In this document: positions 2,456 through 18,357 of the stretch, one piece after another
How positions within the stretch are numbered: the first letter of the stretch is position 1
How the letters are laid out: every line of letters starts with the position of its first letter
Assembly: GCA_963674745.2 (NCBI GenBank)
Contig: CAXXDV010000001.1
Span: 2,272,001-2,336,000, forward strand
DNA: 64,000 nt
Direction: 5' to 3'
Source of the DNA: Desulfosudaceae bacterium
Lineage (GTDB): Bacteria; Desulfobacterota; Desulfobacteria; Desulfobacterales; Desulfosudaceae
Made by a program: the position numbers and the translations under genes
The notes under the pieces: generated by a model
Database searches by the model: none
Told to the model about the DNA's origin: nothing
What the model saw: only the letters and a program-made list of their open reading frames with translations

Positions 2456-2460
2456 ACATT

Positions 2461-2961
2461 ATGCAAAATGTCTTTGTAATAACTGTAGTTGCTTTTTTTC
2501 TCGATGTAATTCTTTCTGCCACTTGGAATTCAACATATTTCCTGTTTGGAGTGCTTGCTTATAAAAAATCATATCGTATTAAAGGCAAGACCCTTGATGA
2601 TCTACCTAACAATATAAGAAAGGATGGTGATCATATCACTTGGGCAAGGTATAAGATTAAGCAAGTAGATAACAGGACATTTCTTTTAAGAAAAAATTTA
2701 TGGTATTTCGGTTTCAGCTTTTCAATGCCAATCATTCGATGGAGAATCAAAGTTCATGACAATGGACAATATTTTAGCTTAACGGCTTTGTATCAATTCT
2801 ACCCAATAGTCCTTCTCTTAGGAATAGGAACAATGTCAGTTCCAGCATTTATCACCATTGTATCCATATTTGTGGCCTTCTTCATATTGAGAACCAAGCT
2901 TGGAGTTGAACCTTTTCATAATGCAGAAGTTGAAAAAATTTGTGGTTTTATAAGAAATTAA
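2461..2961 (+). CDS. hypothetical membrane protein (cassette 3)
   Basis: ORF fills the cassette; hydrophobic segments. Confidence 0.7.
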   Translation: MQNVFVITVVAFFLDVILSATWNSTYFLFGVLAYKKSYRIKGKTLDDLPNNIRKDGDHITWARYKIKQVDNRTFLLRKNLWYFGFSFSMPIIRWRIKVHDNGQYFSLTALYQFYPIVLLLGIGTMSVPAFITIVSIFVAFFILRTKLGVEPFHNAEVEKICGFIRN

Positions 2962-2969
2962 AAAATAGT

Positions 2970-3091
2970 TTATAACAATTCAGCCCAGTAGGATCGCCAG
3001 GGCAGGCTTTGTTGGGCAACTGAGGGAAGTGAGCAGTAATCATCTATAATTAAGTCGGTGGGAACCCTGGCTCCCTCTGGCTGAAGACGTT
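2970..3091 (+). repeat. attC site (family B), R' interrupted by a MITE
   Basis: TTATAAC at 2970, family-B body, GTT at 3089-3091; the core resumes as GTTATGT at 3308. Confidence 0.88.
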
Positions 3092-3307
3092 GAGGCTGTA
3101 GAAAAAGTAAAATTTGAGTAAAACATAGGGTTTTGCCGCCAATTTTTGAAAACCTGAAAGTTATATAAGATTTTGTATGATCTCTGTGAAGCCATCTAAA
3201 ATAGATGGTTTGCAAGGATTTTATGTTTTAGTATAAAATATATTCTACGAAGGTGTTTTTCTGAAAAAAGATAAAATTTATCGAAAATAGACTTTTCCTA
3301 CAGACTC
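3092..3307. mobile_element. 216-bp MITE with 17-bp terminal inverted repeats
   Basis: GAGGCTGTAGAAAAAGT ... ACTTTTCCTACAGACTC (2 mismatches), flanked by GTT on both sides. Confidence 0.82.
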
Positions 3308-3344
3308 GTTATGTGCCGGATTAAAATGTGTTGAGACCTTCTAA

Positions 3345-3524
3345 ATGATATTTCGTGTATTAAAATACATTGCTTCTGAAATGCTTGAGTGGATTATATG
3401 CATAGCTCTTATTGTCACTCTAATGCTAGCTTTCCGTTATTCATATTTTTGGATTTTATTTTCTGTTTTGCTGGTAGGAGTTGTATATTACATTTTGCGA
3501 AAAAAACCCGACGTCAAAATATAG
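3345..3524 (+). CDS. 59-aa small membrane protein (cassette 4; not in ORF track)
   Basis: Manual translation: MIFRVLKYIASEMLEWIICIALIVTLMLAFRYSYFWILFSVLLVGVVYYILRKKPDVKI. Confidence 0.55.
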   Translation: MIFRVLKYIASEMLEWIICIALIVTLMLAFRYSYFWILFSVLLVGVVYYILRKKPDVKI

Positions 3525-3602
3525 ATATAGGGAATAAAAATAATCAGAACATAAGAAAGTTTGAAAAATAAAAAATTATAATTTACCAAAATAAAAACAA
3601 GC

Positions 3603-3726
3603 ACATAACAACACCATGCACTTGACTCGCAGGGGCGGGCTGTTTTTCAAACGTCGCGGTTCGGTGTTAACGTGGCTTTGCAATAGTCACTTTTCCCCTG
3701 CTCCCAAGTGACGGTGGACGTTATCT
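3603..3726 (+). repeat. attC site (family A, 124 bp)
   Basis: ACATAAC ... GTTATCT; similar to 1591 and 12717. Confidence 0.9.
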
Positions 3727-3744
3727 TTTAGAAGCATCGAAAAT

Positions 3745-4389
3745 ATGAAGATAAAATTTGTCGGTATAGTTTTAATTGTAATTGGGTTCACAATCCCATT
3801 TGTCTTAAAGGAAATTGTACCGACCTTCATGTATGCCGCGATATTATCGCAAATTTGTTTTTGGTTCGGCCTCTATACAATCCTTACCCCTATTCATCCT
3901 AATAGCATTTACACACCATATCTTCGGTGGGCGCGATATGGTGTTTTATTGAATTTTGGGCTGAGTTTTTTTGCAATAGCATTTGGTTATATGTTTTTAT
4001 ACTTTGGTCTTGATAAAATATTTGGTGTCTTTTTAATACGTTTGCTCTTTTTCTTAACAAACCCCATTCAATCCACTTTTGATTTTTTCGCTCCCAATCC
4101 TATGGTGCTACAGCCTGACGAATCTTTCATTGGAACAATAAGCTTTATTAGGGCGTTGCTAATTGAGTTCTTCAATATATTATTCTTTTGTTGCGTGGGT
4201 GTTTTAGCCAAAATAATTAAAGAAAAGATAACAAGGCCGCGCAATGGATCGCCAGGGCACCCGGCTTTTGAACATTCGGGGGTAAACGAATATAAACCAT
4301 CTTTAAGGCAAGTCAGTGGAAGCCCTGGCTCCCATTGGCGGCCGCCGTTCGGCAAGCCTATAAATATTGTACAAGTGTCAAAGGTATAA
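3745..4389 (+). CDS. multi-TM membrane protein (cassette 5), reads through its attC
   Basis: Several TM segments; no stop before R'' at 4226. Confidence 0.7.
   Translation: MKIKFVGIVLIVIGFTIPFVLKEIVPTFMYAAILSQICFWFGLYTILTPIHPNSIYTPYLRWARYGVLLNFGLSFFAIAFGYMFLYFGLDKIFGVFLIRLLFFLTNPIQSTFDFFAPNPMVLQPDESFIGTISFIRALLIEFFNILFFCCVGVLAKIIKEKITRPRNGSPGHPAFEHSGVNEYKPSLRQVSGSPGSHWRPPFGKPINIVQVSKV
4226..4353 (+). repeat. attC site (family B, 128 bp)
   Basis: AGATAAC ... GTTCGGC. Confidence 0.9.
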
Positions 4390-4413
4390 TTAATTTTAAT
4401 CAATAATTCCACT

Positions 4414-5007
4414 ATGAAAGTGAAACGATATTGTATAGTATTATTTAGATTTGCACTCCTTAATTTATTTGGATTAGTCTTAATCTTTTATGTGCCACTT
4501 GAGCTTTGGTACTTATCGTGGCCAAAAGTAAAAGCGGAGATTATTAAATCTGTGCATGAGTATGATTGCTACCCGCCGAACTCACCTAAATGTACTCCAA
4601 AAGCAACAATAGTATACAAATATGATATTATTGGGAAAAGTTACACATGTAATAATTATTCTCTCCATGGAGTATATAAGCCTTCGTCAATAATCCATTC
4701 GTTCAAAACACAACAGATTCTAGTAGAGCGATTATTAAATAATTACCCGGTCAATAGCAGCATTACAGTCTATTACAACAAAAACAAACCCCATCAGGCC
4801 GCAATCAACCCAAATATGTCAATGGGTGAGTGGCTGTATATTATAGTATGGACATTTATTGGTGGAATAGTTGTTCGCTCATGGACTATGAAAAATAAAG
4901 AACATCTTTCTCTGACTTATGATTTTAAACTGTTTATTACCTGTGTTATTTTACTTTTATTAGGTTCGATTATCGGAAATGCAATCATTGTGCTCCTAAC
5001 GAAATAA
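4414..5007 (+). CDS. DUF3592-like membrane protein (cassette 6)
   Basis: TM, then SWPKVKAEI...ITVYYNKNKPHQA, then TM. Confidence 0.65.
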   Translation: MKVKRYCIVLFRFALLNLFGLVLIFYVPLELWYLSWPKVKAEIIKSVHEYDCYPPNSPKCTPKATIVYKYDIIGKSYTCNNYSLHGVYKPSSIIHSFKTQQILVERLLNNYPVNSSITVYYNKNKPHQAAINPNMSMGEWLYIIVWTFIGGIVVRSWTMKNKEHLSLTYDFKLFITCVILLLLGSIIGNAIIVLLTK

Positions 5008-5013
5008 AAAGAT

Positions 5014-5137
5014 GCCGAACCACACGTTGGTAACGACCGCAAGGGGCGGTCGATTTTGGCACTTACCAAATAATTTAAAAAACGTGTCTTCGGCGGCGGA
5101 CCGTTCCCCTTGCGGCCCCACACCGTGGACGTTCGGC
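5014..5137 (+). repeat. attC site (A-like variant, 124 bp)
   Basis: GCCGAAC ... CCGCAAGGGG/CCCCTTGCGG ... GTTCGGC. Confidence 0.85.
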
Positions 5138-5148
5138 CGACACATAAT

Positions 5149-5532
5149 ATGCAACCATTTACATCACAAGGTAGAAAATTACGATTGGCGCTAATGCCAA
5201 TTTCATATTTTATTGCCTTCGCGACAATATATATTATGTTGATCTGCCTTGCTAAAATTGAAAACTCAAGTATCAAAGGTCTTCTTCAAACAGATAATTT
5301 ATGGCCGCTCGCGATTATCCTCCCGTGTTTTATCTTTGGGAAAATTCTGGGGCTTATGGCTATAAATGGCATTGCATATTTAATTCCCCATTTGCGTAAT
5401 GTTTTTGAGAATGAAGTAGCTGAAACAGGTCGTAATAATTTTTTCCAGGCAATGAAGGGACTTAGTATCGCTCTTGCCATATCGTTAATCATTACTGTGT
5501 TAGGAGCTATTTTATTCCTCCAATATAAATAA
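5149..5532 (+). CDS. hypothetical membrane protein (cassette 7)
   Basis: First ATG after R'; 3 TM segments. Confidence 0.7.
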   Translation: MQPFTSQGRKLRLALMPISYFIAFATIYIMLICLAKIENSSIKGLLQTDNLWPLAIILPCFIFGKILGLMAINGIAYLIPHLRNVFENEVAETGRNNFFQAMKGLSIALAISLIITVLGAILFLQYK

Positions 5533-5537
5533 TTATG

Positions 5538-5666
5538 GCCGAACAAGGCAGCTCAAGAGGATCGCCAGGGCATTCGGCTTTTGAACATTCGGGGGGAAAT
5601 AAACATTAACCGTCTTTAAGGCAAGTCTGTGGGAGCCCTGGCGCCCTTTGGCTGCCGCCGTTATGT
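5538..5666 (+). repeat. attC site (family B, 129 bp)
   Basis: GCCGAAC ... GTTATGT. Confidence 0.9.
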
Positions 5667-5676
5667 TTCAAAAGGC

Positions 5677-6189
5677 ATGAGAAAAAATAATTTCCAGGCT
5701 CTATTATTCTTTGTTGGCATGATTTTCATGTTTTTGCTTTGTTCATGCCAGTTTTCTGAAAACAGGCATCTCAAACGAGAGGTAAAAAGAAATGAATTGA
5801 TTGGTACATGGATAGCAACGCCATTTGCGATAAAATGTTTACAATGGTCAGGTTTTAAGAATCACCTTGCTACAAACGATCATCAGTTGGTTTTAAATGA
5901 GAATGGATCATGCAGATACAAATCATTTCAAAATTTTTTTATTATCTCAGGTTCAACTCCCAAATATCTTGATGTCGATGATTGTAAGTGGGAACTTATC
6001 AGCAAAACCGAACACCAACAACAGTATATAACTATCACCCTATCATCGTCACCTGAGGGAAGCGGAGGCCCTTATTTTTATTTCGACGAAAAAGACAAAA
6101 AATTGATCCTGTGGCAATATTGTAGTGATCCAGATCAGTGGAAATATATGGAATTTTTTAAGGTAGATTCAAAAAACAAAAAAACATAA
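5677..6189 (+). CDS. putative lipoprotein (cassette 8)
   Basis: MRKNN...LLCSC lipobox-like signal. Confidence 0.7.
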   Translation: MRKNNFQALLFFVGMIFMFLLCSCQFSENRHLKREVKRNELIGTWIATPFAIKCLQWSGFKNHLATNDHQLVLNENGSCRYKSFQNFFIISGSTPKYLDVDDCKWELISKTEHQQQYITITLSSSPEGSGGPYFYFDEKDKKLILWQYCSDPDQWKYMEFFKVDSKNKKT

Positions 6190-6311
6190 CCATGCCGCCC
6201 AAAGGATCGCCAGGGCAGTCGGATTTTGAACAGTCGGGGGGAGACGAACATTAACCATCTTTAAGGCAAGTCAGTGGAAGCCCTGGCTCCCATTGGCGGC
6301 CGCCGTTAAGT
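6184..6311 (+). repeat. attC site (family B, 128 bp)
   Basis: ACATAAC ... GTTAAGT. Confidence 0.9.
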
Positions 6312-6324
6312 GCATATAAAACAT

Positions 6325-6936
6325 ATGTCAAAATGGTATATTTTGCCCGGAATGGGCGCAACTTCAGCGATGTATGATTCGCTTAAGCCCGAAATTGATT
6401 TTGAGGTCAACTTTTTAGATTGGCCTGAATATAAGGGTGAAACAACCTACATGGAGGTTGCAGCACGGATTATAACTGAAAACGATATATCAGACGGAGA
6501 TATTGTTGGAGGATCATCCCTGGGGGGAATGGTCGCTCTCGAAATTGCACAGATATTGCGGCCAAGAACAACTGTGCTTCTTGGGAGTGCTATAAATAAG
6601 CGAGAAGTTCAGAGTGTCCTTTCTATCTTGTCCCCTTTGGCAGCTGTAACCCCAATATCATTGATTCAATTTTTGGTGGGGAAACACAAAAGTTTAATAG
6701 CGAAAATGTTTTCCAATTGCGATTCTGGATTTATTCGGGCCATGTGCTTGCATTTACGTTCATGGCCAGGCTATTCCGGCCCGAATGAGAACATAATTCG
6801 GCTTCATGGCCGGAAAGACCATGTAATTCCGTGTCCAGCAACTGGCGCAGAGATTATTGATGGTGCTGGCCATTTATTGGCAATGACACATCCTAAAGAA
6901 ACTGGGCAGTTTTTAAAAAATGTACACAGCACTTAA
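6325..6936 (+). CDS. alpha/beta hydrolase (cassette 9)
   Basis: LPGMGA, GSSLGG nucleophile elbow, HGRKD and GAGH motifs. Confidence 0.85.
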   Translation: MSKWYILPGMGATSAMYDSLKPEIDFEVNFLDWPEYKGETTYMEVAARIITENDISDGDIVGGSSLGGMVALEIAQILRPRTTVLLGSAINKREVQSVLSILSPLAAVTPISLIQFLVGKHKSLIAKMFSNCDSGFIRAMCLHLRSWPGYSGPNENIIRLHGRKDHVIPCPATGAEIIDGAGHLLAMTHPKETGQFLKNVHST

Positions 6937-7059
6937 CCATTCAGCGCAATAGGATCGCCAGGGCACCCGGGTTTTGAACAGCCATGCTGAGTTGAAATTT
7001 TAACCATCTTTAAGTCAGTCGGAGGAAGCCCTGGCGCCCTTTGGCTGAAGACGTTCGGC
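6931..7059 (+). repeat. attC site (family B, 129 bp)
   Basis: ACTTAAC ... GTTCGGC. Confidence 0.9.
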
Positions 7060-7079
7060 TTCTGATTGGAAATATCAAA

Positions 7080-7562
7080 ATGAAAAAGATATTTTTTTTA
7101 ATCATTCTCATTTTAGTGCTTAGTGATGCAAATGCGACTGAGATCGTTGACGTAAATACAAGTATCCTTGGAAAGGACGTAAACACCCCTCTTGAATTAT
7201 TCTCGGTGGGAGAAAATAATAAAAGTACCCTTCTTTATCCCACCAACATTCAATTAGATATTGAGAACAATTTATGCAAAGCTGTATCCATGCTTTTCCC
7301 AGACAATAAAATCAAACTTGATGAAATGAGAAAGATCATAAATACAAAGTATCCCGATACCGAATATATTGTAGGAGATAAATTTTGGGCTTGGCGGGTT
7401 GAAAATGGACATTTTACAATAACAATGTTCCCCCAAGAAGATTGTATCGAGGATTATAATTACATTAGAGTTGTTTACTTGATGTGGGTTAATGAAGATA
7501 TTGATGTTATAGTAGAAAGAGGCGAAAAAATTCTAAATTATCTACAGAAAAATATAGAGTAA
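7080..7562 (+). CDS. putative secreted protein (cassette 10)
   Basis: MKKIFFLIILILVLSDANA signal peptide. Confidence 0.7.
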   Translation: MKKIFFLIILILVLSDANATEIVDVNTSILGKDVNTPLELFSVGENNKSTLLYPTNIQLDIENNLCKAVSMLFPDNKIKLDEMRKIINTKYPDTEYIVGDKFWAWRVENGHFTITMFPQEDCIEDYNYIRVVYLMWVNEDIDVIVERGEKILNYLQKNIE

Positions 7563-7690
7563 GCCGAACCAAGCAGCGCAAGAGGATCGCCAGGGCATTC
7601 GGCTTTTGAACACTCAGGGGAAACTGAACATAAACCATCTATAAGACAGTCAGAGGATGCCCTGGCGCCCTTTGGCTGCAGACGTTCTGT
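7563..7690 (+). repeat. attC site (family B, 128 bp)
   Basis: GCCGAAC ... GTTCTGT. Confidence 0.9.
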
Positions 7691-7718
7691 GCAAAAAAAT
7701 TATCGGGGATAATTAACT

Positions 7719-8312
7719 GTGAATGAGAGTATTTGTTGGTATGAGATAAAACGAAAGACTATATTCTCGTATTTAATCCCGATACTTTTGACTGTATTCT
7801 GGCTAGGTTTTATAACGTTACTAAGCCAGTGCTCGGAAAAAGAAAAAAAATATGACAAGGAATTATGGCAACCCTGGCTTGAGATTAAGAATGAAAAAAT
7901 ACAATTTATCGAATTACACCCTATTCTCACAACTGGATACTACACCATCTCAAATGTGGCTAGGATTGAAGATAAACAATTGATTTCAAAAATTAAAGAG
8001 AATTTAAACAGAAGACTTATGACAAATGAAGATAAGATCGGTTACCATTGGTTCTCAAGTAAACGTCTTCGAATAACAGCTTATACAGAAAAGAAAGAAT
8101 TTTCATTTATCTTATTTTTTCATGGGGAATTTCCAAGTGTTCAATATCAAATGTTGGTGCCCACAAACGAAAAGCATAGCGCATTCAGGCCGCAGCAGTG
8201 CCCCGGTTTCTACGCTAGCGGTGAAGGATGGAGAAGTGCTAAATTGTATAATGTAATAAATGAATTTATCAGTCACTCAAAAAAGGTTCATTGGAACAAA
8301 TATGCTATTTAA
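7719..8312 (+). CDS. membrane-anchored hypothetical protein (cassette 11)
   Basis: N-terminal TM; ORF fills the cassette. Confidence 0.65.
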   Translation: MNESICWYEIKRKTIFSYLIPILLTVFWLGFITLLSQCSEKEKKYDKELWQPWLEIKNEKIQFIELHPILTTGYYTISNVARIEDKQLISKIKENLNRRLMTNEDKIGYHWFSSKRLRITAYTEKKEFSFILFFHGEFPSVQYQMLVPTNEKHSAFRPQQCPGFYASGEGWRSAKLYNVINEFISHSKKVHWNKYAI

Positions 8313-8373
8313 CTTAAACAATGTTCAATGAAACGCAAATAGATAGTGAAAATAATTCATTGAAGATAAAAGC

Positions 8374-8502
8374 ACAGAACAAGGCATCGCAAGAGGATCG
8401 CCAGGGCATTCGGGTTTTTGAACGGCTTGGGGAAATTGAACATTAACTTTCTTTAAGACAGTCAGAGGAAGCCTTGGCGCCCTTTGGCTGCCGCCGTTAT
8501 GT
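8374..8502 (+). repeat. attC site (family B, 129 bp)
   Basis: ACAGAAC ... GTTATGT. Confidence 0.9.
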
Positions 8503-8508
8503 CGAAAT

Positions 8509-9093
8509 ATGAAAAAGCTCATATCAATATTTCCAGCCATTTTAATATTAATTATTATTGGAATGTCGGCTTACAATGTCAAAACAGACCCAGATTATAA
8601 AACCTACGATGTTTTGAATGAAGCGATTGAAAAAGGTGACATTTCGACTGTAAAAACGATTATTGGCAAAGACAAAAAATTTCTTTCGTTTAGTAGGCCG
8701 GCACTTAACGAAGCTGTTTTTAATTGCCAACTTGAGATAGCTAAATACTTGATAAAAGCGGGCGCAAAGGTAAATCATAAATATGGGCGTCATAATTCGA
8801 CTGCTCTTCATGTAGCAGCATATAATTGTGATAATGCCGAAATCATAAATTTATTGATCAGGAACGGTGCTATAGTTGATATAAAAAATGATCTATTTGA
8901 AACACCGCTTATGCTCGCATCCGAAAATGGAAACATCAAAGCGATGAAGGTGCTTATAGATAATGGTGCAAATGTTAATGCAAGGAGTAGAGCATACGGA
9001 ATCCCTGTAGATTATGCGAAAAGGAATAGCTCCTTAAACGCAATTGATTTTTTGAAACAAAAAGGGGCAAAAACAATCAATAAAAATTTTTAA
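8509..9093 (+). CDS. ankyrin-repeat protein with N-terminal signal/TM (cassette 12)
   Basis: TALHVAA, TPLMLAS and LIxxGA repeats. Confidence 0.88.
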   Translation: MKKLISIFPAILILIIIGMSAYNVKTDPDYKTYDVLNEAIEKGDISTVKTIIGKDKKFLSFSRPALNEAVFNCQLEIAKYLIKAGAKVNHKYGRHNSTALHVAAYNCDNAEIINLLIRNGAIVDIKNDLFETPLMLASENGNIKAMKVLIDNGANVNARSRAYGIPVDYAKRNSSLNAIDFLKQKGAKTINKNF

Positions 9094-9094
9094 G

Positions 9095-9155
9095 ACATAA
9101 CGAACAAGGATAGATCGTGCGAGGTAACGAGCCACGATCTTATCCGGGGTTGAAC
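9095..9155. repeat. 61-bp attC-like hairpin formed at the end of the IS91-like element
   Basis: ACATAAC-GAACAA-GGATAGATCGTG...CACGATCTTATCC-GGG-GTTGAAC, with one extrahelical base. Confidence 0.65.
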
Positions 9156-9349
9156 AAGCCCGCTGAACTTTCACTATAAGAAAATATTTAATTTGGGATA
9201 GAGGGCAAAAGGCGTGAACCTGGAAAGTGCTTTTTTTGCAGGACGCAGGGATCCCTTAACCTGAAGGCAGGTTTTAAAAAGACAATTTTGTTCATGGGTG
9301 TGATTGCCTCCTGTTTTTTGTTGTGCCGGGTCATAACCGGGTCAGCGTT

Positions 9350-10405
9350 TTATCCCGGCTTCCAGGCCGCGTAACGGAACCCTTTGATGACCATCGGGAT
9401 GTGGCAACGGGGGCACTTTACAGCAGGTCTCGGGCGTTGGGTTTTTATTCCAAGCCGGACATGCAGGATCAATTGCACCAGTTGCAGCGTCTTTTTGGCG
9501 TTGCCATGAAGAAACCCGTAATCGCGCACCCTGCGGAAGCCCTTGGGCAGGACATGCTGCAGAATGAGCTGGAGAAAATCTTCTCCGTCAAGCGTACGAT
9601 AACGGGTATGGCCGGTGCCGCTTTCAGTGTACCTGAAGGTGACCCGGCCATTTTCATTGGCCACAATATTCTTTTCACTGATTACACCCCGGTATAAGTA
9701 CCGGGACAGGTACTTTATGACCGGGAGCCCGTTACCGACCTTTTCACAATCCACGACCCATTTTGCAGGTGTATTTTTAGGCACATAAAGGCCGGCTTTT
9801 CTTAAAGCGGCCAGAAAACGGGCACGAAAGACCGTGGCCAGGTTAAACTCATTAAACAGATATTTTCCTTTTTTCTTTTTCCATTGTCGCCGGCGCTTAT
9901 CAATCCCGCCGCCGGGCACCACCACATGGATATGAGGATGATAATCCAGACTTCGGGTGTTCGTATGCAGAACCATGGTCAAACCGATTTCTGCGCCCAT
10001 TTGCTTCGGGTTTAAGCCAAAATCCTTGAGTGTTTCGGACACGCAGGAAAAGAAGATTGAATATACATCCCGCTGATTGTTCCAGGCCAGCGGACGGAGT
10101 TCAAACGGCAGCGTAAACGTCGCCATAAAGTAAAGCACCGGAAGCAGTTTGTCTTGCTGCCGGTCGATCCACTGAGTGGCCTCATGGTTCTGGCATTTGG
10201 GGCAGCTCCGATGTCCGCAGGACATCGGGTGCCATTTCCCATGATGGCAGGCAGGACACTGAACGTAAAATTCTCCGGAAGCAGGTGTGCGACATCTGCG
10301 TATGGCACGCAAGGATTTAAGATGCCCCGGCAAGGCTTTTTGGCCGTGCTTTTCCATAAACCTGTCAGCGTACTGATCAATAATTGATGCCAGTTCCATA
10401 ATCAT
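9350..10405 (-). CDS. IS91-family (Y2/HUH) transposase
   Basis: N-terminal Cys zinc-binding region (CPAC...[11 protein letters not shown]), HPHIH HUH motif, YLSRY motif and RVRDYG. Confidence 0.92.
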
Positions 10406-11306
10406 ACCTTTCTAAAATCAACATGGATTGTATTTATCAGCTCATTTAAGACAGTCAGGCTGTCCTGCTCCGTTATATCGCTCAGATGCGTATAACGTGC
10501 TGTTGTGGAGGGACTGGCATGGCCAAGCAGGGCCTGGATGTGACGGAGGCTTAAGCCGCGTTCAAGCAGGTGGGTGGCAAAACTGTGACGCAGGGAGTGA
10601 ATGGATACTTTTTTTTAATGCCGCATTCGGCGACGACCACTTTCATGGCTCTCTGACAGCCGCCTTTATCCATAAAGTTGGTGGCCGCCCGGATGGTCTC
10701 TAAAGACCCCTTGCAATTGGGAAATAACAAATTAGGATGACGATGCTTACGCCAAAGCTCCCGCAGGCCCGTCAAAGTCAGGTCCGGCAATGGCAGCATT
10801 CGGTCCTTATGACCTTTACCCCGGCGGATATGGACCTTTTTGCGCTCAGCATCAATGTCCCCGATCTGAAGGGACAACGTCTCTTCCAGACGCAATCCCA
10901 TGGAATAGGTTGTCAGCAGAAATACCCGGTAACGCAATTTCTTGGTTTTGCCGATGATCCGTTCAACCTCGGAAACGGTAAGAATGTCCGGTATGGTTTT
11001 GACTTTCGGCGGTTTGACGATCTTGATCCATTCCCAGTCCTTTCCGAGCACATACCGCCAGAAGAACTGCAAGCCGTTACGGTCAACCCTGACCGTGCTC
11101 CAGGAATGGCTATCCACCAGCTGAGAGAAATAACCTTCCAATTGTTCCGGACGCAAATGGTCGGGACAACAATCAAAATGGTTACGAATGCGGCGGACTG
11201 AACGGGCATAGAGATCAATGGTCCTCGGACTCATACCCTGAAGCTTGAGCAACTCCAGGTGCCTCTCATAAAGCCGGTTGAAACGTTTTACTTCCGAATC
11301 GTTCAT
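10402..11306 (-). CDS. tyrosine recombinase completed by a -1 frameshift at 10608-10616
   Basis: Frame 0 has a SAM-like N-terminus, GLRLEE and GKGHKDR. The -1 frame after A8G gives [15 protein letters not shown]...[13 protein letters not shown]...RKV*, whose stop overlaps the tnp ATG (ATGA). Confidence 0.88.
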
Positions 11307-11360
11307 GGTATACTCCTTTCATTGGGGGTGCCCGTAATTGAGCACGTATTGGAGTATACC
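11307..11360 (-). promoter_or_regulatory. 5'-UTR hairpin sequestering the recombinase RBS
   Basis: Perfect 10-bp inverted repeat GGTATACTCC/GGAGTATACC; one arm contains the GGAG SD and abuts the ATG. Confidence 0.55.
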
Positions 11361-11393
11361 TTGTTTTTTATTAATCCGCCGCGTAGCGGCTTC

Positions 11394-11521
11394 GTTCAAC
11401 CATTCAGCGCAAGAGGATCGCCAGGGCACTCGGGCTTTGAACAGCCGTACTGAATTGAACATTAACCGACTTTAAGTCAGTCAGAGAAGGCCCTGGCGCC
11501 CTTTGGCTGAAGACGTTATGA
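11394..11521 (+). repeat. attC site (family B); R'' now supplied by the element end
   Basis: GTTCAAC + family-B body + GTTATGA. Confidence 0.88.
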
Positions 11522-11534
11522 AATATAGCCTGAT

Positions 11535-12707
11535 ATGAAAGCCATCAAACCATTATCAATCATGCTTTTTTGTCTTATTGTTGTTTCCTGCGCCCCCAAT
11601 TCTTCTAATATAAGGGCAACAGATAATCAGATGGGCATGGATAACCATTCTGTTAATTATAGTTCGGGTGATATGTTAAAAATTGAAAATTGTACCAAAG
11701 AAGTCAATACAGAATATGACCTAATAGAGCAGGCGTTTGATTGTTATGAAGAGTTCGATCAAAAGACAATCAATGACATTACTTCCAACTACTCCATCTC
11801 TATTTTTATCAATACGTTACAAGACGATAATTACGAGTATCGTGCAGGAGCTGCAAGGATTCTTGGATTATTGAAATATTCAAAATCAGTTCCAGATTTA
11901 TTATACATGGCAATAAACGACCCAAATCCATATTGTAAGGTAAGCGCAACTTTAGCCCTCTATCAAATTGATGAGGAGCCGGCAAAAAACGATGCTTTTT
12001 CTAATCTGATAAAGGACTTTACAAATCCAGAAACAGAATCGGTTTACAGAGGCATCATCGCAGCCCTCATGGGGGATATAGGTGATCAAAATGCAACCCC
12101 TTATTTACTCACAGCTTTAAAAGATCCCAAAACAGATCCATTTGTACTCGATTTTGTAATCTTCGCTTTGGGAAAAATTAAAGGTGAAAATATACCTGCT
12201 GCACTTAATGAATTCATTTTAAGGCATGATATTGAACCATATATTCGAAAAGATGCCATAATGGCGTTAGGCTCAATTGGTGATGATGATTCAATCTCGT
12301 TCTTATCTGATATCTTGAATTCAAAAGATTACAATTATTCTATTAGGGCAGATGCGGCTTCAGCATTAGGTTACGAATCAAACCATAGCCAAAAGGCCAT
12401 TTCAGCCTTAATTAATGCCACAAAGGATGAAAATAAAGGTGTCCGTTTTTTTGCTGTTTGTGCCTTGGGAAAAATACCTGATGAGCGTGCAACGAAGGGT
12501 TTAATTAATGCTCTGAACGATGATTGTGACCGTGTTCGAGTTACGGCAGTCAATTTTTTAGGATTAACCGGTGATGAATCATCTATACCAGCGTTAACAA
12601 GGTTATCAAAAGATGATGCGATAATTTATGGTCAGCCAATTAAAGAACACGTTCAAAAAGCGATTGAGCAAATTAAGGAAAAAGCTATAAAGGATAAATC
12701 AAAATAA
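11535..12707 (+). CDS. HEAT-repeat lipoprotein (cassette 13)
   Basis: VVSC lipobox; repeated VR..A..ALG motifs. Confidence 0.85.
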   Translation: MKAIKPLSIMLFCLIVVSCAPNSSNIRATDNQMGMDNHSVNYSSGDMLKIENCTKEVNTEYDLIEQAFDCYEEFDQKTINDITSNYSISIFINTLQDDNYEYRAGAARILGLLKYSKSVPDLLYMAINDPNPYCKVSATLALYQIDEEPAKNDAFSNLIKDFTNPETESVYRGIIAALMGDIGDQNATPYLLTALKDPKTDPFVLDFVIFALGKIKGENIPAALNEFILRHDIEPYIRKDAIMALGSIGDDDSISFLSDILNSKDYNYSIRADAASALGYESNHSQKAISALINATKDENKGVRFFAVCALGKIPDERATKGLINALNDDCDRVRVTAVNFLGLTGDESSIPALTRLSKDDAIIYGQPIKEHVQKAIEQIKEKAIKDKSK

Positions 12708-12716
12708 CAGAAAATT

Positions 12717-12839
12717 TCATAACCACACCATGCACTTGACTCGCAGGGGCGTTCTGCTTTTTCAGTATCGCAGTTCGGTGTTAACGTGGCTTCGTAAACG
12801 TCACAGTTCCCTGCTCCCAAGTGACGGTGGACGTTGTGC
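12717..12839 (+). repeat. attC site (family A, 123 bp)
   Basis: TCATAAC ... GTTGTGC. Confidence 0.9.
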
Positions 12840-12859
12840 ATCTATAACATTATATAAAT

Positions 12860-14131
12860 ATGGAACCTATATTTCACAGTATAATCTTATGGGTTAAGAT
12901 TTTAAGTATACCAATAGCTTCTATTGTTTATAGATATGTTAAAAAAAAGCCATTCTTTTACAAAGAAAACCCAGATGCAAATTATCAGGAAAAATGGCGT
13001 TCTGGGCATGCATGCAATATTTTTCAAATGTTTGGTGGCGCACGAAATTGTCTTTGGTTTTCGATCCTAAAAGATGAAATAATTATCTGTCCGCATTTTC
13101 CTTTCAACTTATTATTTTTGCCTGAAATATGGGGATGTGAGCATCACATTAAAGGGAAAGAAATTATATCGATTGATGAGAACCCGAGATTAGGTGGAAT
13201 AGTAATCTGCTTTAAAAAAGGGATTGGAGTCAAAAAATTTAGAATTTATCCCAAGCACAAAGAAATTTTTGTGGGTTTCGCTAAAGGGATATTAGCTAAT
13301 CACAAAAAATCGATATCCTCCTCGCTTGTCTTGGACGAAGAAAAGCATCTCTGCCAACCGCCACACACTAAAAAGCGCTATGTACCGAAAAGTATATACC
13401 AATTAATGTTTATAATATTTTTTTTCGGAGTTATTGGTCCAATTTGGTGGTTTGTTATTCCAAATCTTTACAAAAAAGATGGCCTTTACACTGATTTAGA
13501 GCAAAGGAATGTTAAGGCGGTTGAAAAAAGAATTGATAGTCAAGAGGAAGTGATTAATCGAAGATTTTATGGATTAAATGCCACACCATTACATATTGCC
13601 GCTGGTTTGGGTGATATTGAAATGATGGATATGTTATTGCGAAAAGGTGCTAACATTGAAGTGAAGGGTTATAGGAACCTATGTGAACCGATCCATTTAG
13701 CGGCAGGCAAGGGACACATAAAAGCTGTTGAATTTTTATTAAAAAATGGCGCACATATTGATGCCAAAGATAGGGATAACGAAACCCCATTACATGATGC
13801 CGCTTATAATAATCAAGCCGAAATGATAGGTTATCTTGTTAAACATGGAGCAAACATTAATGCAAAAAGCAACTGTTATCATCTTACGCCACTTGAAGAA
13901 GCTGTTAAATTTGAACGGGCTATAGCAGTGCGTGCTTTGCTCGAAAATGGTGCCAAAGCTGATCTTGATGCTTTAATATTAAGAGTTCAAAGAGACATGG
14001 AAGGTGCGCCTTTAGCGGATGAAACACGAAAAAAAGAATGGACAGATGTATTAGAAATATTAAGGGAATTCAAGTCAAGGAATGCACAACCAGTAAATTC
14101 AGCCGACGCAAAAAACCGCGCGGCTGATTAG
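12860..14131 (+). CDS. membrane protein with C-terminal ankyrin repeats (cassette 14)
   Basis: TPLHIAA, PIHLAA, TPLHDAA repeats after a TM; stop lies inside the attC. Confidence 0.85.
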   Translation: MEPIFHSIILWVKILSIPIASIVYRYVKKKPFFYKENPDANYQEKWRSGHACNIFQMFGGARNCLWFSILKDEIIICPHFPFNLLFLPEIWGCEHHIKGKEIISIDENPRLGGIVICFKKGIGVKKFRIYPKHKEIFVGFAKGILANHKKSISSSLVLDEEKHLCQPPHTKKRYVPKSIYQLMFIIFFFGVIGPIWWFVIPNLYKKDGLYTDLEQRNVKAVEKRIDSQEEVINRRFYGLNATPLHIAAGLGDIEMMDMLLRKGANIEVKGYRNLCEPIHLAAGKGHIKAVEFLLKNGAHIDAKDRDNETPLHDAAYNNQAEMIGYLVKHGANINAKSNCYHLTPLEEAVKFERAIAVRALLENGAKADLDALILRVQRDMEGAPLADETRKKEWTDVLEILREFKSRNAQPVNSADAKNRAAD

Positions 14132-14142
14132 CGGCGTTAGGC
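14084..14142 (+). repeat. short 59-bp attC site
   Basis: GCACAAC ... TCAGCCG/CGGCTGA ... GTTAGGC. Confidence 0.85.
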
Positions 14143-14152
14143 GCATGAATAT

Positions 14153-14593
14153 TTGATTCGAAGCTACATATTAAATGGCCTTATCGCATCAGTGGGTGCC
14201 GCATTTATAACGGCTGCTGCCAATATGCTCAATACTATTTGGCATGCTTATCCACCCGACAGATCTGGAATGTTCATCGGATTTGCAGTTTTCTTTGGTG
14301 TTGGTCTATGGTGCCTTTATGGTTCGATAAGCAATATTCGAACACGAATCCGGAACCGCAACACCTCAGAGACTTCCCCAAAAATGTTGTGGCCAGAGCG
14401 CATAGCAGCTATTCTTTGCGGTAGCACAATTCTTGGGGTTGTTCTTTTGTATATAAACTTCCTTCTTGAGCCTTTCGGCACACAAAGAGGCTCCTTAGTT
14501 TTTCATTATATCGCTCTGGGGCTATTATTTAGCGGTATCGTTGGTTCTATCGTATTGCCGATTATTAAAGCTTTAAGACGATCGAGTGCATGA
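14153..14593 (+). CDS. 4-TM hypothetical protein (cassette 15)
   Basis: TTG start; ORF fills the cassette. Confidence 0.65.
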   Translation: MIRSYILNGLIASVGAAFITAAANMLNTIWHAYPPDRSGMFIGFAVFFGVGLWCLYGSISNIRTRIRNRNTSETSPKMLWPERIAAILCGSTILGVVLLYINFLLEPFGTQRGSLVFHYIALGLLFSGIVGSIVLPIIKALRRSSA

Positions 14594-14603
14594 TGACGAC
14601 GGC

Positions 14604-14732
14604 GCCTAACAAGGCATCGCAAGAGGATCGCCAGGGCATTCGGCTTTTGAACATTCGGCGGAAACTGAACATTAACCGTCTTTAAGACAAGTCATTGGAA
14701 GCCCTGGCGCCCTTTGGCTGCCGCCGTTAGGC
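14604..14732 (+). repeat. attC site (family B, 129 bp)
   Basis: GCCTAAC ... GTTAGGC. Confidence 0.9.
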
Positions 14733-14743
14733 AAAAATATATT

Positions 14744-15286
14744 ATGAAGAGGACTAAGCTATTACTTGATGTTCCGTATTCCATAGATAAAACCATTAAA
14801 GTCCTTGAAGACAATATTGATCGCCCCAAAATGCTTACTTTAATTTCAAAGAAAAATCATAAATGCCCATTCATTGGAAAAATTAAAGGGAACAGATTCA
14901 TTTTTCGTGAACAAAGCATATGGGGATACTCTGGCCTATATGACAGGAATAATTTGCATCCATACTTTGAAGGACATATTGTACCAACCGGGGAATTCTG
15001 CCAAATTTCCGGTAAATTTACCAATGGCCCGGTAGCTGGTTGTTTGATGCCAGTACTCTTAACCTGGTTCGCTTTCCTATGTGGAATATCTTCTATTGCA
15101 ATTGTTCATAACTGGTTTACTGGCGCTGACGGACCAGCTCCAGTCATTTTGATTTTCACACTTCCTGTATTTTTGTTATCAATTTATGGTTTATTTTTTT
15201 CAAATCCTTCACGAAAGCGAGACGTAGAAAAATATATAGAAACCTTTGAAAAATTATTGAATGCAAAAATAAATGAGACTGCCTAA
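14744..15286 (+). CDS. hypothetical membrane protein (cassette 16)
   Basis: First ATG after R'; two C-terminal TMs. Confidence 0.7.
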   Translation: MKRTKLLLDVPYSIDKTIKVLEDNIDRPKMLTLISKKNHKCPFIGKIKGNRFIFREQSIWGYSGLYDRNNLHPYFEGHIVPTGEFCQISGKFTNGPVAGCLMPVLLTWFAFLCGISSIAIVHNWFTGADGPAPVILIFTLPVFLLSIYGLFFSNPSRKRDVEKYIETFEKLLNAKINETA

Positions 15287-15541
15287 CACATATGAGCCGC
15301 CCGGAGTCAATGGGGAATAAAAATTTTTTAGGGACTGAGTTTTTACTCCCCCTTTCCGCAGTTAAAACAGAACGGACTCACTGTCTTTAATTCAAAGCGC
15401 GTAGTAAAATAGCTGCTACAAAGGCCGCGCAAAGGATCGCCAGGGCATTCGGCTTTTGAACATTCGGGGGAAATTGAATATTAAACATCTTTAAGGCAAG
15501 TCGGTGGAAGCCCTGGCTCCCATTGGCGGCCGCCGTTCGGT
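15281..15541 (+). repeat. attC site (family B) interrupted by a 133-bp insert
   Basis: GCCTAAC[insert]AAGGCCGCGCAAAGGATCGCC ... GTTCGGT; 128 bp without the insert. Confidence 0.85.
15288..15420 (-). mobile_element. 133-bp insert, probable IS110/IS1111-type right-end remnant
   Basis: Insertion immediately after R''; the minus strand ends TTGACTCCGGGCGGCTCATATGT (terminal -35 box). Confidence 0.5.
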
Positions 15542-15550
15542 GACAAAATT

Positions 15551-16390
15551 ATGCTTAACACCCGCACATGGCATTGGCTTTGCGTTAGCGCTTTCATCAT
15601 GTTTCCGGGCGTGGTCATGATTTGGTTACTGCCAGAAAGTTCACTCCTCAGTTGGTTGGCACCGGCGATGATTTTGTGGGGCATTGTTGTTGGCATTTTG
15701 GGGGCGATTCAGGGAATCCTGCTCGCGTTTGGGCGTTTGAAAATGGGTTGTCCACGATGTGATTCGAAGAGCAACGTGATCGGAGGGAATCGAGATGGGA
15801 TGTATTTGAGCTGCCCTGAGTGCGGTGATCTCCGAATCAAGCTTGGAAGCATCTTTGGCTTGGAAGTGATTCGTTCCGGTAGTGAAGAGGATGACCTTTC
15901 CGATTATAAGGAAGAATCTGCATCGCTACTTCTCACACCCAAGAGACACCCTTTATTGTTCATAGTCCTTTATCTCCCAGTGGTAGCATCGATTATTGTT
16001 GCTACGATCATACACGAGTTCACGGTTTTCTATCTCCTGATTCCTGGCGTGTGGTGTTATGGAGTTGGATGCTTCATCATCGAAGGCATTTACAAAGGTA
16101 GTATGAGCGACAACCACGGAACAGCCTTACGATCGAAGTCGCCCGTTCGATTTTGGGGCAAGATTGGAATTTGGTTTCTCTTTTATGTTTTCGCCACGGC
16201 TTTTCCCATTGGATTCGCCATGCAAGAGCACAGCAAGGCCGACACCGAACAATTCTGTTCAAGTAACAGCCAGGGCCGAGCCGCTTTGGCAGATGGTTGT
16301 AAAATTGAAGGTGTGTCCTTTTTATTGAAGTCAGAGAAAGCCTGTCTGTCCCTGACTGAAGACGTTATGCATAAAAATGAAGTGATATGA
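15551..16390 (+). CDS. membrane protein with a zinc ribbon (cassette 17), reads through attC
   Basis: CPRC...CPEC between TM pairs; stop overlaps the next ATG. Confidence 0.7.
   Translation: MLNTRTWHWLCVSAFIMFPGVVMIWLLPESSLLSWLAPAMILWGIVVGILGAIQGILLAFGRLKMGCPRCDSKSNVIGGNRDGMYLSCPECGDLRIKLGSIFGLEVIRSGSEEDDLSDYKEESASLLLTPKRHPLLFIVLYLPVVASIIVATIIHEFTVFYLLIPGVWCYGVGCFIIEGIYKGSMSDNHGTALRSKSPVRFWGKIGIWFLFYVFATAFPIGFAMQEHSKADTEQFCSSNSQGRAALADGCKIEGVSFLLKSEKACLSLTEDVMHKNEVI
16244..16370 (+). repeat. attC site (divergent B-like, 127 bp)
   Basis: ACCGAAC ... GTTATGC. Confidence 0.8.
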
Positions 16391-17061
16391 ATTTATCCTT
16401 AAAGCAAAAATTTCTTCTGATTGGACTAATAATATTATTCTTTCGAGTCTTCTCAGCCCTTTTAACATTCGGACACGTCCAGCTATTCGGGACTCCATTT
16501 CAAATTGATTTTCTTTTCAATGTATATTCACCTCTTGTCGCATGTGCGCTATCTGTTATTATCTCCATACAAATATTTAATAAATTTTCTGATATAAATA
16601 AACTTTTTGTCATAATGGTTTTGGTTGTCGCATTTTTACCGATGTCTTTTAATTATGAGATCGCCTTTGATGAAGGCACTGACGCTATTCCTGTCGATGA
16701 ATTAGGTGCTGTTAAGCCCGCGTCATTCGGTTTTCATTTGATCGACGATGAACAATCGATACAATCGACCATTTTGACTAACAAGCATGTTGATCGGGCG
16801 GAAGCTGTTTCTGATAAAACTTTCGGGGTTAAAATCTTTTTTACACCTCAAGGAGAAGCGGAATTCCCAAAGTCTATCCGAATCAATGTTGGGGAAAAGC
16901 TTGGTTTTTCTATTAATGGCGAATTGCTCACCAGCACCATAGAAATGGTAGAAAGGGATGATGCTGATAATATAGAAGAAGCCCCGTATATTGTATTGCC
17001 GTTATGCGTTGATATTTTTGGGGCAAACAGAATTGCTGCGGAAATTATGAAGAACAAATAA
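16387..17061 (+). CDS. membrane protein with a SecDF P1-head-like C-terminal domain (cassette 18)
   Basis: 3 TMs, then VKIFFTPQG...NVGEKLGFSINGELL. Confidence 0.55.
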   Translation: MNLSLKQKFLLIGLIILFFRVFSALLTFGHVQLFGTPFQIDFLFNVYSPLVACALSVIISIQIFNKFSDINKLFVIMVLVVAFLPMSFNYEIAFDEGTDAIPVDELGAVKPASFGFHLIDDEQSIQSTILTNKHVDRAEAVSDKTFGVKIFFTPQGEAEFPKSIRINVGEKLGFSINGELLTSTIEMVERDDADNIEEAPYIVLPLCVDIFGANRIAAEIMKNK

Positions 17062-17069
17062 TTAATAAT

Positions 17070-17182
17070 GCATAAGAAGCTCAAGTGGACAGCCAGGGCA
17101 CTCGGGTTTTGAAAAATCGAGGGGTTTGAACAACCCAAATCATTAACTAAGTCAGTGGAAGCTCTGGCTGCCGCCGTTCTGT
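17070..17182 (+). repeat. degenerate attC site (family B, 113 bp)
   Basis: R'' reads GCATAAG (not AAC); right arm lacks about 10 bp; R' GTTCTGT. Confidence 0.7.
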
Positions 17183-17206
17183 TTCAATACCCCCACCAAA
17201 AATATG

Positions 17207-17235
17207 TTGACAAAAGGCAGACAATAGCATATATT
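17207..17235 (+). promoter_or_regulatory. sigma70 promoter of the TA cassette
   Basis: TTGACA-17 bp-TATATT. Confidence 0.75.
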
Positions 17236-17241
17236 CATGCC

Positions 17242-17511
17242 ATGAAATATTTGAACTGGAACTCTGATAAAAACGAAATTTTAAAAAAAGAACGTGGGAT
17301 TTCCTTTGAAGAAATAGCCTATTTGATTGAGTCTGGACAGATAATCGGAATAGAGGAAAATCCGGGGTACCCTGGTCAAAAAATGTATGTTTTGGAAATT
17401 GACAATTATGCCATCATGGTTCCTTACGTGGAAGACGACGCGGAAATTTTTTTGAAAACGGCTTTTCCAAGCCGTAAATACACAAAAAAATACGGTTTGA
17501 AGGGGGAATAA
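17242..17511 (+). CDS. BrnT-like type II toxin (cassette 19)
   Basis: WNSDKNEILKKERGISFEE...FLKTAFPSRK. Confidence 0.8.
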   Translation: MKYLNWNSDKNEILKKERGISFEEIAYLIESGQIIGIEENPGYPGQKMYVLEIDNYAIMVPYVEDDAEIFLKTAFPSRKYTKKYGLKGE

Positions 17512-17807
17512 TGAATAGAATCAAAAAAAAGTCTTTTAAACCAATCGATCAGGAAGAGAAAGACCTGATGGAATCAATTGAACGTGACGAGTGGCGACCT
17601 GTTAAAAACTTTGATCGAGAAAGAAAGAAAGCTATAGAGGCTGCTCGAAACACTCTGAAAAAAGACAAACGAATAAATCTTCGTCTTTCTCAAAAAGATT
17701 ACCATCAAATACAAATAAGAGCACTTGAAGAAGGTATACCCTATCAAACGCTGATTTCAAGTATTGTGCATAAATTCCTGAACGGTTCTTTAACACCTAA
17801 ATCATGA
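17511..17807 (+). CDS. CopG/RHH-type antitoxin
   Basis: KDKRINLRLS...EGIPYQTLI; TAATG overlap with the toxin. Confidence 0.8.
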   Translation: MNRIKKKSFKPIDQEEKDLMESIERDEWRPVKNFDRERKKAIEAARNTLKKDKRINLRLSQKDYHQIQIRALEEGIPYQTLISSIVHKFLNGSLTPKS

Positions 17808-17813
17808 AAGAAA

Positions 17814-17903
17814 ACAGAACCAAGCGGTGTCGCTGATGTCCACGGCTTGCATTCTTCGCTACGCTCAGGCAAGCCGCGCCACAGCTAACCGCAGACGTTA
17901 GGC
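17814..17903 (+). repeat. terminal attC site (90 bp)
   Basis: ACAGAAC ... GCGGT/ACCGC ... GTTAGGC. Confidence 0.8.
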
Positions 17904-18116
17904 TTTCCTTTGGCCTTTGCCGCTGAGGGTTTACACACATCAATTGCCATTTCTCCAGACCTGCCCAAGCGTTTGGGTTCTCAGGCGCTTAATAGGTTCT
18001 TTTATTCAAGGACCGTCGTTGTTGATAAAAAAAAGCTATTGATCTGGAAAAGTTTATTTACGGCGGGTTTACAAAGGAGAAAAGAGGATTGGGCTAAAAT
18101 TTTTTAGTATGCGCGT

Positions 18117-18152
18117 AAAAAAAGGGGGTTGTGATTTTCACAACCCCCTTTT
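18117..18152. terminator. bidirectional intrinsic terminator downstream of tRNA-Val
   Basis: A-tract, AAAGGGGGTTGTGA/TCACAACCCCCTTT stem, T-tract. Confidence 0.8.
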
Positions 18153-18160
18153 GGTGTTAG

Positions 18161-18235: not shown

Positions 18236-18357
18236 TTTATGTATAACGTGGCAACGTTTTAAAATATGAATAGCAAATCGTTTTTTGCCGGTCAACAACC
18301 ATTTTGTGCCTGGCCAAAATTTTCGGGTGCGAACAAAAAGCCTTTTTTAATTTCGCC

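Follow-up and report, generated by a model that had tools for sequence, protein, structure and literature searches.

Genetic organization of the locus

A 64,000-nucleotide stretch of genomic DNA from a Desulfosudaceae bacterium (assembly GCA_963674745.2, contig CAXXDV010000001.1, positions 2,272,001 to 2,336,000; hereafter the window) contains an integron-type cassette array in its first 17 kb, and one attC site of this array is split by a mobile element of the IS91 insertion sequence family. The element carries two genes on the minus strand, coding for a tyrosine recombinase and, behind it, an HUH-Y2 transposase. On sequence comparison it appears to be an active-looking member of a large IS91 subfamily in which an Xer-like recombinase stands ahead of the HUH transposase, and which would be site-specific for hairpins, here those of attC. 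The features of the element and its host site are listed in Table 1.

The attC sites of the array are 124–139 nt long and belong to two sequence types. The split site belongs to the ankyrin cassette, whose open reading frame (ORF) spans 8509–9093. This cassette starts with G|TTATGT at 8496; its own R'' must therefore be ACATAAC, and this exact complement of the cassette start is found directly before the element. The first bases of the element are GAACAAGG at 9102 and the last are CGTTCAAC at 11400. AAC is present at both junctions, which leaves these borders free to move by as much as 3 nt (to 9099–11397). A sequence-only reading of the window had placed the element directly after the AAC of R'', in inverse orientation to the cassettes, and this placement was borne out with a one-base correction of the coordinates (to 9102–11400). 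The sequences quoted in that reading (a complementary core pair, a hairpin with an extrahelical base and an oriIS-like motif) are all present in the window, and the junction sequences fit the G|TT crossover that it had proposed.

Table 1. Features of the element and of the split attC site (window coordinates).
Feature	Position	Strand	Remarks
R'' box ACATAAC, attC of ankyrin cassette	9095–9101	+	AAC is the insertion point
Whole element	9102–11400	− (genes)	2299 bp; block common to the four genome copies; borders slidable by 3 nt
Terminal hairpin (L box), GGATAGATCGTG / CACGATC-T-TATCC	9108–9145	+	One unpaired T, on the 3' arm of the plus strand
R box, inner half GTTGAAC	9149–9155	+	Followed by conserved AAGCCCG; covaries with the left-end 7-mer
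oriIS-like motif TATAAGAAAATAT (sense ..ATATTTTCTTATA)	9174–9194	−	Near invariant in relatives; 71 nt inside the end
IS91-family HUH-Y2 transposase, 351 amino acids	9350–10405	−	Intact in all four copies
Xer-like tyrosine recombinase gene, two frames	10402–11306	−	Zero frame 11306–10551 (251 amino acids); catalytic C-terminus HxLRH...Y in the −1 frame
Slippery heptamer A_AAA_AAG, in phase	10608–10614	−	In an A8 run (10609–10616); same in all four copies
Left-end hairpin GCCGC-GTA-GCGGC	11378–11390	+	3 nt from GTTC, as in IS1294 terIS; conserved in relatives
R box, outer half GTTCAAC	11394–11400	+	Left end of the element
Split host attC, remainder (L''...L'; R' GTTATGA at 11515–11521)	11401–11521	+	Aligns with the intact attC sites of the array

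Copies in the genome

The genome holds four full copies of the element, which are 97–100% identical. When aligned, all four have identical ends (GAACAAGG...CGTTCAAC), are preceded by YTAAC and are followed by the remainder of an attC site. They occupy the same position and orientation, inverted to the cassettes, in four different attC sites of the two sequence types, and this coincidence in four of four copies is more than chance. Because Rfam has no attC model, attC likeness was assessed with a crude folding test of our own, which demands an AAC:GTT pair within 160 nt and compares each site with 100 shuffles. Each of the four rebuilt empty sites forms an attC hairpin (−21 to −29 kcal/mol) and beats 100 of 100 shuffles; the host site of the window copy folds at −27.4 kcal/mol. 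An Rfam scan of window positions 1–20000 returned one transfer RNA only.

Sites of the second attC type (CATAAC..TGACTCGCAGGGGCGGGCTG..GGACGTT) lie among those of the main type in the window's array, at 1612–1710, 3604–3722 and 12718–12835. It is an attC of this second type that genome copy 3 of the element occupies.

At 1912962–1913005 of the genome contig C3, a 23-nt stump of the right end (GAACAAGGATAGATCGTGCGAGG) lies directly after GCATAAC and is followed by unrelated sequence. This stump is a fifth, decayed insertion site, and apart from it no solo hairpin module was found in this genome.

Judged from GC skew, the attC top strand lies on the lagging-strand template for three of the four copies, which are too few to weigh. 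The skew switches from minus to plus at about 1.5 Mb of contig C1 and from plus to minus at about 1.34 Mb of C3, as if C1 and C3 were the halves of one chromosome. In the array beside the IntI gene at C1:2117407, the leading-strand template carries the attC top strands; the other three copy-bearing arrays differ in this respect.

Contigs from sequencing runs gave two further observations. Over window positions 9082–9172, the summed contig depth across the hairpin module is 4–6 times that of the element body in runs X1, X2 and X3. Several run contigs have 9097–9162 in common and then diverge; these are probably other members of the family in the same samples, with other variable regions.

Relatives and the target rule

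A scan of one genome per species yielded 80 related loci with transposases 46–77% identical to that of the element, mostly in Desulfobacterota, with some in Gammaproteobacteria and other groups. A right-end module is present in 56 of the 60 loci that have at least 330 nt behind the transposase. In sense orientation this module reads GGGCTTGTYCAAC, 3–5 nt, GGATAAGATCGTGG, a loop, CACGATCTATCC and 6 nt, and GTT follows directly in 52 of the 56. The four loci without the module comprise two disrupted or truncated copies, one copy cut by a contig end and one divergent copy. Similarly, the left end GTTGRAC-GAAGCCGC-hairpin was found in 36 of 43 loci with enough upstream DNA.

The flanks of these relatives follow one rule. 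Among 56 distinct upstream flanks, the consensus on the host top strand is [G/A]C[C/A]TAAC; RYYYAAC is matched exactly in 17 of them, and at least three of its four degenerate places are matched in 46. In the 49 distinct downstream flanks, for which the consensus is AAnnCGnTnnA, position 8 is T in 35 and position 11 is A in 40; this is how an attC site usually begins. In addition, 29 of 43 loci have an ORF of at least 60 amino acids on the host top strand that stops no more than 60 nt ahead of the AAC, compared with 4 of 43 in a reversed-sequence control; an inverted position behind a cassette gene is thus the general pattern. The flanks, the end module and the cassette ORFs agree in answering a question raised with the sequence-only reading: homologues insert at the AAC of attC R'' and not at GTTC/CTTG tetranucleotides. 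As the flanks are neither GTTC nor CTTG, ordinary IS91 targeting was rejected. The site rule points to a little-known kind of mobile element living on integrons.

When the folding test was applied to 33 rebuilt sites (29 from relatives and the four from this genome), 16 exceeded 95 of 100 shuffles and 13 exceeded 99; the other sites fail partly because of the required AAC:GTT pair within 160 nt. A single border polymorphism is informative for the place of the cut within AAC. It is found in locus L032, which has AAT at its left end and is readable either way.

The recombinase and transposase pair also occurs on plasmids of Sphingomonas, Sinorhizobium and Clostridium, and the same architecture was seen at both ends in Clostridium and at the left end, the only one seen, in Sinorhizobium. 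On the Clostridium estertheticum plasmid NZ_CP086142.1, two copies (L107 and L145) of a distant element have the R-box pair ATTGAAC/GTTCAAT, in which the left-end ATTGAAC pairs with a GTTCAAT next to a long right-end hairpin. The flanks of this one Clostridium element form a non-attC palindrome, AAACG.CGTGAA...TTCACG.CGTTT, and the subfamily may target hairpins in general.

Some relatives show irregular right ends. In L024 (1790–1900) and L030 (1357–1470), an additional, incomplete copy of the final 20–45 nt stands behind the right end and again ends in ...CCTTATTCGTT; repeated insertion or aberrant termination could have left this copy. In L072 (4553–4870) and L089 (4553–6600), a small element is inserted into or right behind the oriIS-like motif; the two inserts measure about 120 nt and about 2 kb.

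Ends of the element and the junction site

The terminal hairpin is kept in homologues, with compensatory changes, as had been asked of it in the earlier reading. The bottom strand of the element is continuous with the top strand of attC, and on it pairing holds in 98.3% of cells across 45 distinct sequences. Compensatory change is seen in 5 of the 12 pairs, a result matched by 0 of 500 shuffles, and all slid controls scored far lower.

The seven nucleotides of the left end pair with the box beside this hairpin, and five complementary versions of the pair were found. Both ends could be compared in 42 sequences (38 related loci and the four copies of this genome): GTTGAAC/GTTCAAC occurs in 29, GTTGGAC/GTCCAAC in five, GTTGTAC/GTACAAC in one, GTTGAAC/GTCCAAC in five and others in two. 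The complementary core pair noticed at 9149 and 11394 of the window is thus real and covaries across relatives. In a second clade, in which the recombinase is about 41% and the transposase about 35% identical, the R box reads GTTCAAG with CTTGAAC or CATGAAC; the hairpin sequence is unrelated, while the GTT junction and attC-like flanks are kept. A Photobacterium plasmid carries a copy (44%) that is built alike, its stem being different again. The hairpin architecture belongs to the whole recombinase-bearing IS91 subfamily.

Because the left-end 7-mer pairs with the box on the hairpin side, the full R box-spacer-L box site exists only when the two ends are joined. The suggestion that the element carries an attC-like site of its own therefore stood for the joined ends; the site is not a captured attC, its architecture being subfamily-wide. 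In sense orientation the element starts with TTGAAC and ends with GTTCAAC-spacer-hairpin-spacer-G, with the covarying R box, and the cassette-like build that had been proposed is real. The sequence of a circular junction is also present in a public assembly. Contig L067 (2453 nt) has a 141-nt terminal overlap that closes it to a circle of 2312 nt, in which the right end, a single GTT and the left end follow one another; the contig shows a circle or a tandem, between which it does not distinguish.

Mismatched pairs bear on the strand that folds. In the five GTTGAAC/GTCCAAC cases and in six stem cells, the pair is a G.T wobble on the bottom strand and an A.C mismatch on the sense strand.

The oriIS-like motif resembles the terminal motif ..TTTCCTATACGT of IS91 and IS1294. 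In the relatives shown it lies about 70 nt or more inside the end, with a variable stretch and the box-hairpin module beyond it. This internal position is the main reason for which the transposase is thought not to define the right end. The transposase may nevertheless define at least the left end, since this end looks like a canonical terIS; HUH enzymes also use a short motif 5' of the cut.

Transposase and recombinase

The transposase matches the Pfam families Y2_Tnp (PF04986, 4.6e-48) and Zn_Tnp_IS91 (PF14319, 8.3e-28). It scores 388 bits against the NCBIfam model NF033538 (cut-off 125), covering positions 1–353 of 356. The recombinase gene precedes the transposase gene on the minus strand and encodes Phage_int_SAM_4 and Phage_integrase domains; in natural in-frame relatives the protein has 301 amino acids. 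Its best profile matches are XerA (176 bits) and XerD (161 bits), all under the cut-offs. Against the IntI model TIGR02249 it reaches 141–144 bits, in two stretches, where the cut-off is 265. Compared with the IntI of this genome it is 32% identical and the IntI insert is missing. On these matches the recombinase is classed as Xer-like and not as an IntI. Searches of the element with Pfam and NCBIfam found only the IS91 transposase and the tyrosine recombinase, and neither a DEDD transposase nor a reverse transcriptase.

All catalytic motifs of the recombinase are kept across the subfamily. It was found in 26 of the 151 genomes of the order, this one counted. Of 30 loci, 24 have an IS91 transposase gene directly behind the recombinase gene, and the linkage is kept down to about 35% identity; the six loci without a linked transposase are fragments, contig ends or the weakest hit.

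A conserved frameshift in the recombinase gene

The recombinase gene is split at the A8 run in all four copies of this genome. The zero-frame codons are ATT AAA AAA AAG, and the zero-frame product of 251 amino acids is without the HxxR motif, the H and the tyrosine; a −1 shift restores a pattern identical to that of the in-frame relatives. The survey of this frameshift covered 67 loci with enough DNA, and the HxLRH segment was readable in 58. A −1 shift at an A8–9 run is needed in 52 of the 58 (A8G in 38, A9 in 11 and A9G in three). Five of the 58 are in frame (L026, L032, L072, L084 and L092), with the A run interrupted or shortened, and one has A7. A homopolymer sequencing error was rejected as the cause, since the shift is seen in short-read metagenome-assembled genomes from many studies and in the run contigs. 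The A8 run is covered without gaps in the contigs of runs X1, X2 and X4.

The site has the sequence features of a programmed −1 frameshift: an X_XXY_YYZ heptamer in phase, restoration of the frame and conservation. As the two frames read, only −1 frameshifting at A_AAA_AAG, whether by ribosomal or by transcriptional slippage, would yield a catalytic recombinase. The stop of the −1 frame overlaps the start of tnp (ATGA), and through this overlap the frameshift probably also gates translation of the transposase. About 50 nt downstream of the slippery site is a GGCTTAAGCC palindrome, a structure seen by eye only. RNA sequencing runs contained only 0.05 of the sampled words. What annotation pipelines would call a broken integrase thus carries a conserved recoding signal, and its conservation speaks against decay.

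Comparison with known systems

The element resembles the canonical IS91 family (IS91, IS801 and IS1294) in several respects. It has an HUH-Y2 transposase with a zinc-binding N-terminus, two unlike ends and an oriIS-like motif downstream of tnp, and no target duplication. Its left end, GCCGC-gta-GCGGC-TTC-GTTC(-AAC) at 11378–11400, has, as far as sequence goes, the build of the IS1294 terIS, which on the same strand reads GGCAGCC..GGCTGCC-GTG-GTTC. The stop of the upstream ORF overlaps the tnp start, as does that of orf121 in IS91, and a bottom-strand circle is probably the moving form. It differs in that the transposase is only about 25% identical to canonical ones and the upstream ORF is a tyrosine recombinase of 301 amino acids. 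The oriIS-like motif is not at the very end and the flank is the attC RYYYAAC, not GTTC/CTTG; the end has an extra module of about 60–75 nt (box and hairpin), and the target is AAC in a hairpin site. ISfinder lists IS91 members with an upstream integrase (ISShvi3, ISSod25, ISAzo26 and others), which have the same gene pair as the element. A full-text literature search, supplements not included, turned up only a passing mention of ISShvi3 and nothing that describes the target rule, the junction site or the frameshift.

Other unrelated elements are known to use attC. The IS1111-attC insertion sequences and group IIC-attC introns are described as attC-specific; they insert close to the 5' end of the site, in antisense orientation relative to the cassettes (PMC3001079). 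The element has the same position and antisense orientation. However, IS1111-attC elements use a DEDD transposase with a guide RNA and group IIC-attC introns a reverse transcriptase with a ribozyme, and neither carries its own attC-like site.

With the gene cassettes moved by IntI, the element has in common a circular form, a folded R box-spacer-L box with a bulged base, an AAC/GTT crossover and a single-strand logic. It differs from them in a recombinase that is not IntI, in the inverted insertion at R'' of the top strand, and in carrying two genes, one of which is a transposase. In the integration of CTX phage by XerCD, Xer-type recombinases act on a folded single-stranded hairpin with an unpaired centre; one strand is exchanged and replication completes the process. 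The route proposed below for the element would resemble this single-strand exchange by analogy. In contrast to CTX phage, the element brings its own recombinase and targets a hairpin site instead of dif, and its single-stranded DNA would come from a transposase and not from a phage.

Proposed mechanism of insertion

The favoured reading, to which a probability of roughly 0.55 is given, is that the recombinase of the element inserts a single-strand circle made by the transposase into folded attC. The transposase would peel off the bottom strand, which is antisense to tnp and continuous with the attC top strand, as a single-strand circle in the manner of IS91, and the junction of this circle would fold. 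The recombinase of the element would then swap one strand, at AAC, between the junction hairpin and the folded attC top strand, the latter being the strand that would be exposed on the lagging-strand template. Replication would complete the insertion, as in the integration of cassettes by IntI and in the action of XerCD on CTX phage. The site rule, the covarying junction site, the strand bias, the linkage of the two genes and the recoding signal are observed, and the single-strand circle, the folding of its junction and the recombinase as the integrating enzyme are what we infer. In IS91, only the bottom-strand circle inserts, according to part of a recent report (PMC13181058). Also, read in the sense direction, real copies of IS91 and IS1294 have GAAC or CAAG as the flank behind oriIS, and the GTTC/CTTG target and the cut are therefore on the bottom strand. 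The attC top strands of chromosomal integrons lie on the lagging-strand template, as stated in a section of another study (PMC11023631).

The conserved motifs of the recombinase, its linkage to the transposase and the internal oriIS-like motif were counted in favour of the recombinase as integrator. The two partners have only 3 nt of identity in common, which fits a one-strand exchange on hairpins and not a double-strand site, and equally fits an HUH cut after a short motif.

Several observations weigh against this reading. The assignment of each cut to an enzyme rests on sequence comparison, and the left end, with its hairpin, 3 nt and GTTC, resembles a canonical terIS. The host hairpin on the top strand bulges on the arm that is cut and the element hairpin bulges on the other arm; host and element hairpins are therefore not equivalent partners. 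Related sequences are not independent, and the covariation counts overstate the number of events. One stem cell of L032 shows the opposite wobble asymmetry and five cells are ambiguous. Only about half of the rebuilt sites of relatives pass the crude hairpin test. Among the contigs of the four sequencing runs, which drop rare forms, none joins 11400 to 9102, as a circle would, or 9101 to 11401, as an empty site would. Three joints that are listed in the run contigs are repeat effects of the neighbouring attC or have sides of only 21–22 nt.

Alternatively, the transposase might act alone, cutting after AAC at the left end and in the target and inserting the single-strand circle. The recombinase would then be an accessory, either a termination or regulation factor like Orf121 or a resolvase, and pairing of the R box would only join the ends or guide cleavage, comparable to the guide sequences of IS608. 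IS91 TnpA by itself is stated, in the portion of the report concerned, to insert bottom-strand circles at a short motif matching the last bases of terIS (PMC13181058). In the element, AAC terminates both the element and the target, the left end is built as a canonical terIS, and int takes the place of orf121 with the same stop-start overlap. A 3-nt motif, however, cannot explain four of four copies at one attC position, or a consensus that reaches 11 nt past the cut. Insertion by the transposase alone is further opposed by the oriIS-like motif not being at the end, by the full set of tyrosine-recombinase catalytic motifs conserved across the subfamily, and by the site of the element, which copies the R box-spacer-L box layout of its target. 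On balance this alternative is considered unlikely, if deserving of serious attention. An excised circle that behaves as a replicon was judged improbable. Here the recombinase would both excise and insert the element, and the HUH protein would be a Rep that rolls off single-strand copies from an internal oriIS. The oriIS-like motif is indeed internal, a circular assembly exists, and on either side of the integrated copy stands a chimeric hairpin, both of them on the same strand, which a recombinase could synapse. Nevertheless, the terIS-like left end lies exactly at the border, and no free replicon was found in the genome assembly (three contigs) or in the run contigs.

The sequence-only reading had also named IntI as a possible integrator. 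The host IntI would then move the element as a gene cassette, with the element's own enzymes serving replication or regulation, and the copies seen would be rare wrong-strand events that IntI hardly reverses. The sense-orientation layout is that of a cassette, TTGAAC ... R''(GTTCAAC)-L''-L'-G, with the bulge on the L'' arm as in attC; the junctions are compatible with a G|TT crossover, and the genome has three IntI genes. This explanation is nevertheless very improbable, because all copies are attached at R'' of the attC top strand and none of the four lies at R' or attI in the orientation of the array. The same pattern of ends and flanks is kept in relatives, with the cassette ORF just before R'' at the frequency given above (29 of 43). 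The window holds an array but no IntI gene; the closest one located is about 154 kb before the first base of the window. In addition, Int is strictly linked to Tnp, and the architecture also occurs on Clostridium and Sinorhizobium plasmids, with a non-attC palindrome as the Clostridium target.

Insertion by the recombinase of the element can be extended to a complete pathway of two enzymes, in which an HUH-made single-strand circle folds, an Xer-like recombinase pastes it into hairpins of the lagging strand (attC here, other palindromes elsewhere), and a −1 frameshift gates both. This fuller scheme is put forward tentatively, its chance being somewhat short of even. To our knowledge, such an HUH and recombinase pathway has not been described for any transposon.

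The data give a concrete model, with named sites, strand and cut position, for the role of the integrase in some IS91 members. The element would represent a third, enzymatically unrelated class of attC-specific elements beside the IS1111-attC insertion sequences and group IIC-attC introns, and all three have converged on antisense insertion at the 5' end of attC. Each insertion leaves two chimeric attC-like sites where there had been one attC. If the proposed route is true, these elements could both parasitise and remodel cassette arrays. The findings bear on how integron arrays are disrupted or reshaped.

Other features of the window

About 1 kb past the array's last attC-like repeat, a transfer RNA gene lies on the minus strand at 18164–18235. 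An 8-nt unit (CCTTGAAC/CCTCGACC-like) is repeated in runs at 47451–47502 and 61360–61403, 13.9 kb apart. Three direct repeats of 111 nt are located at 51012–51295, and a fourth follows 624 nt further on.

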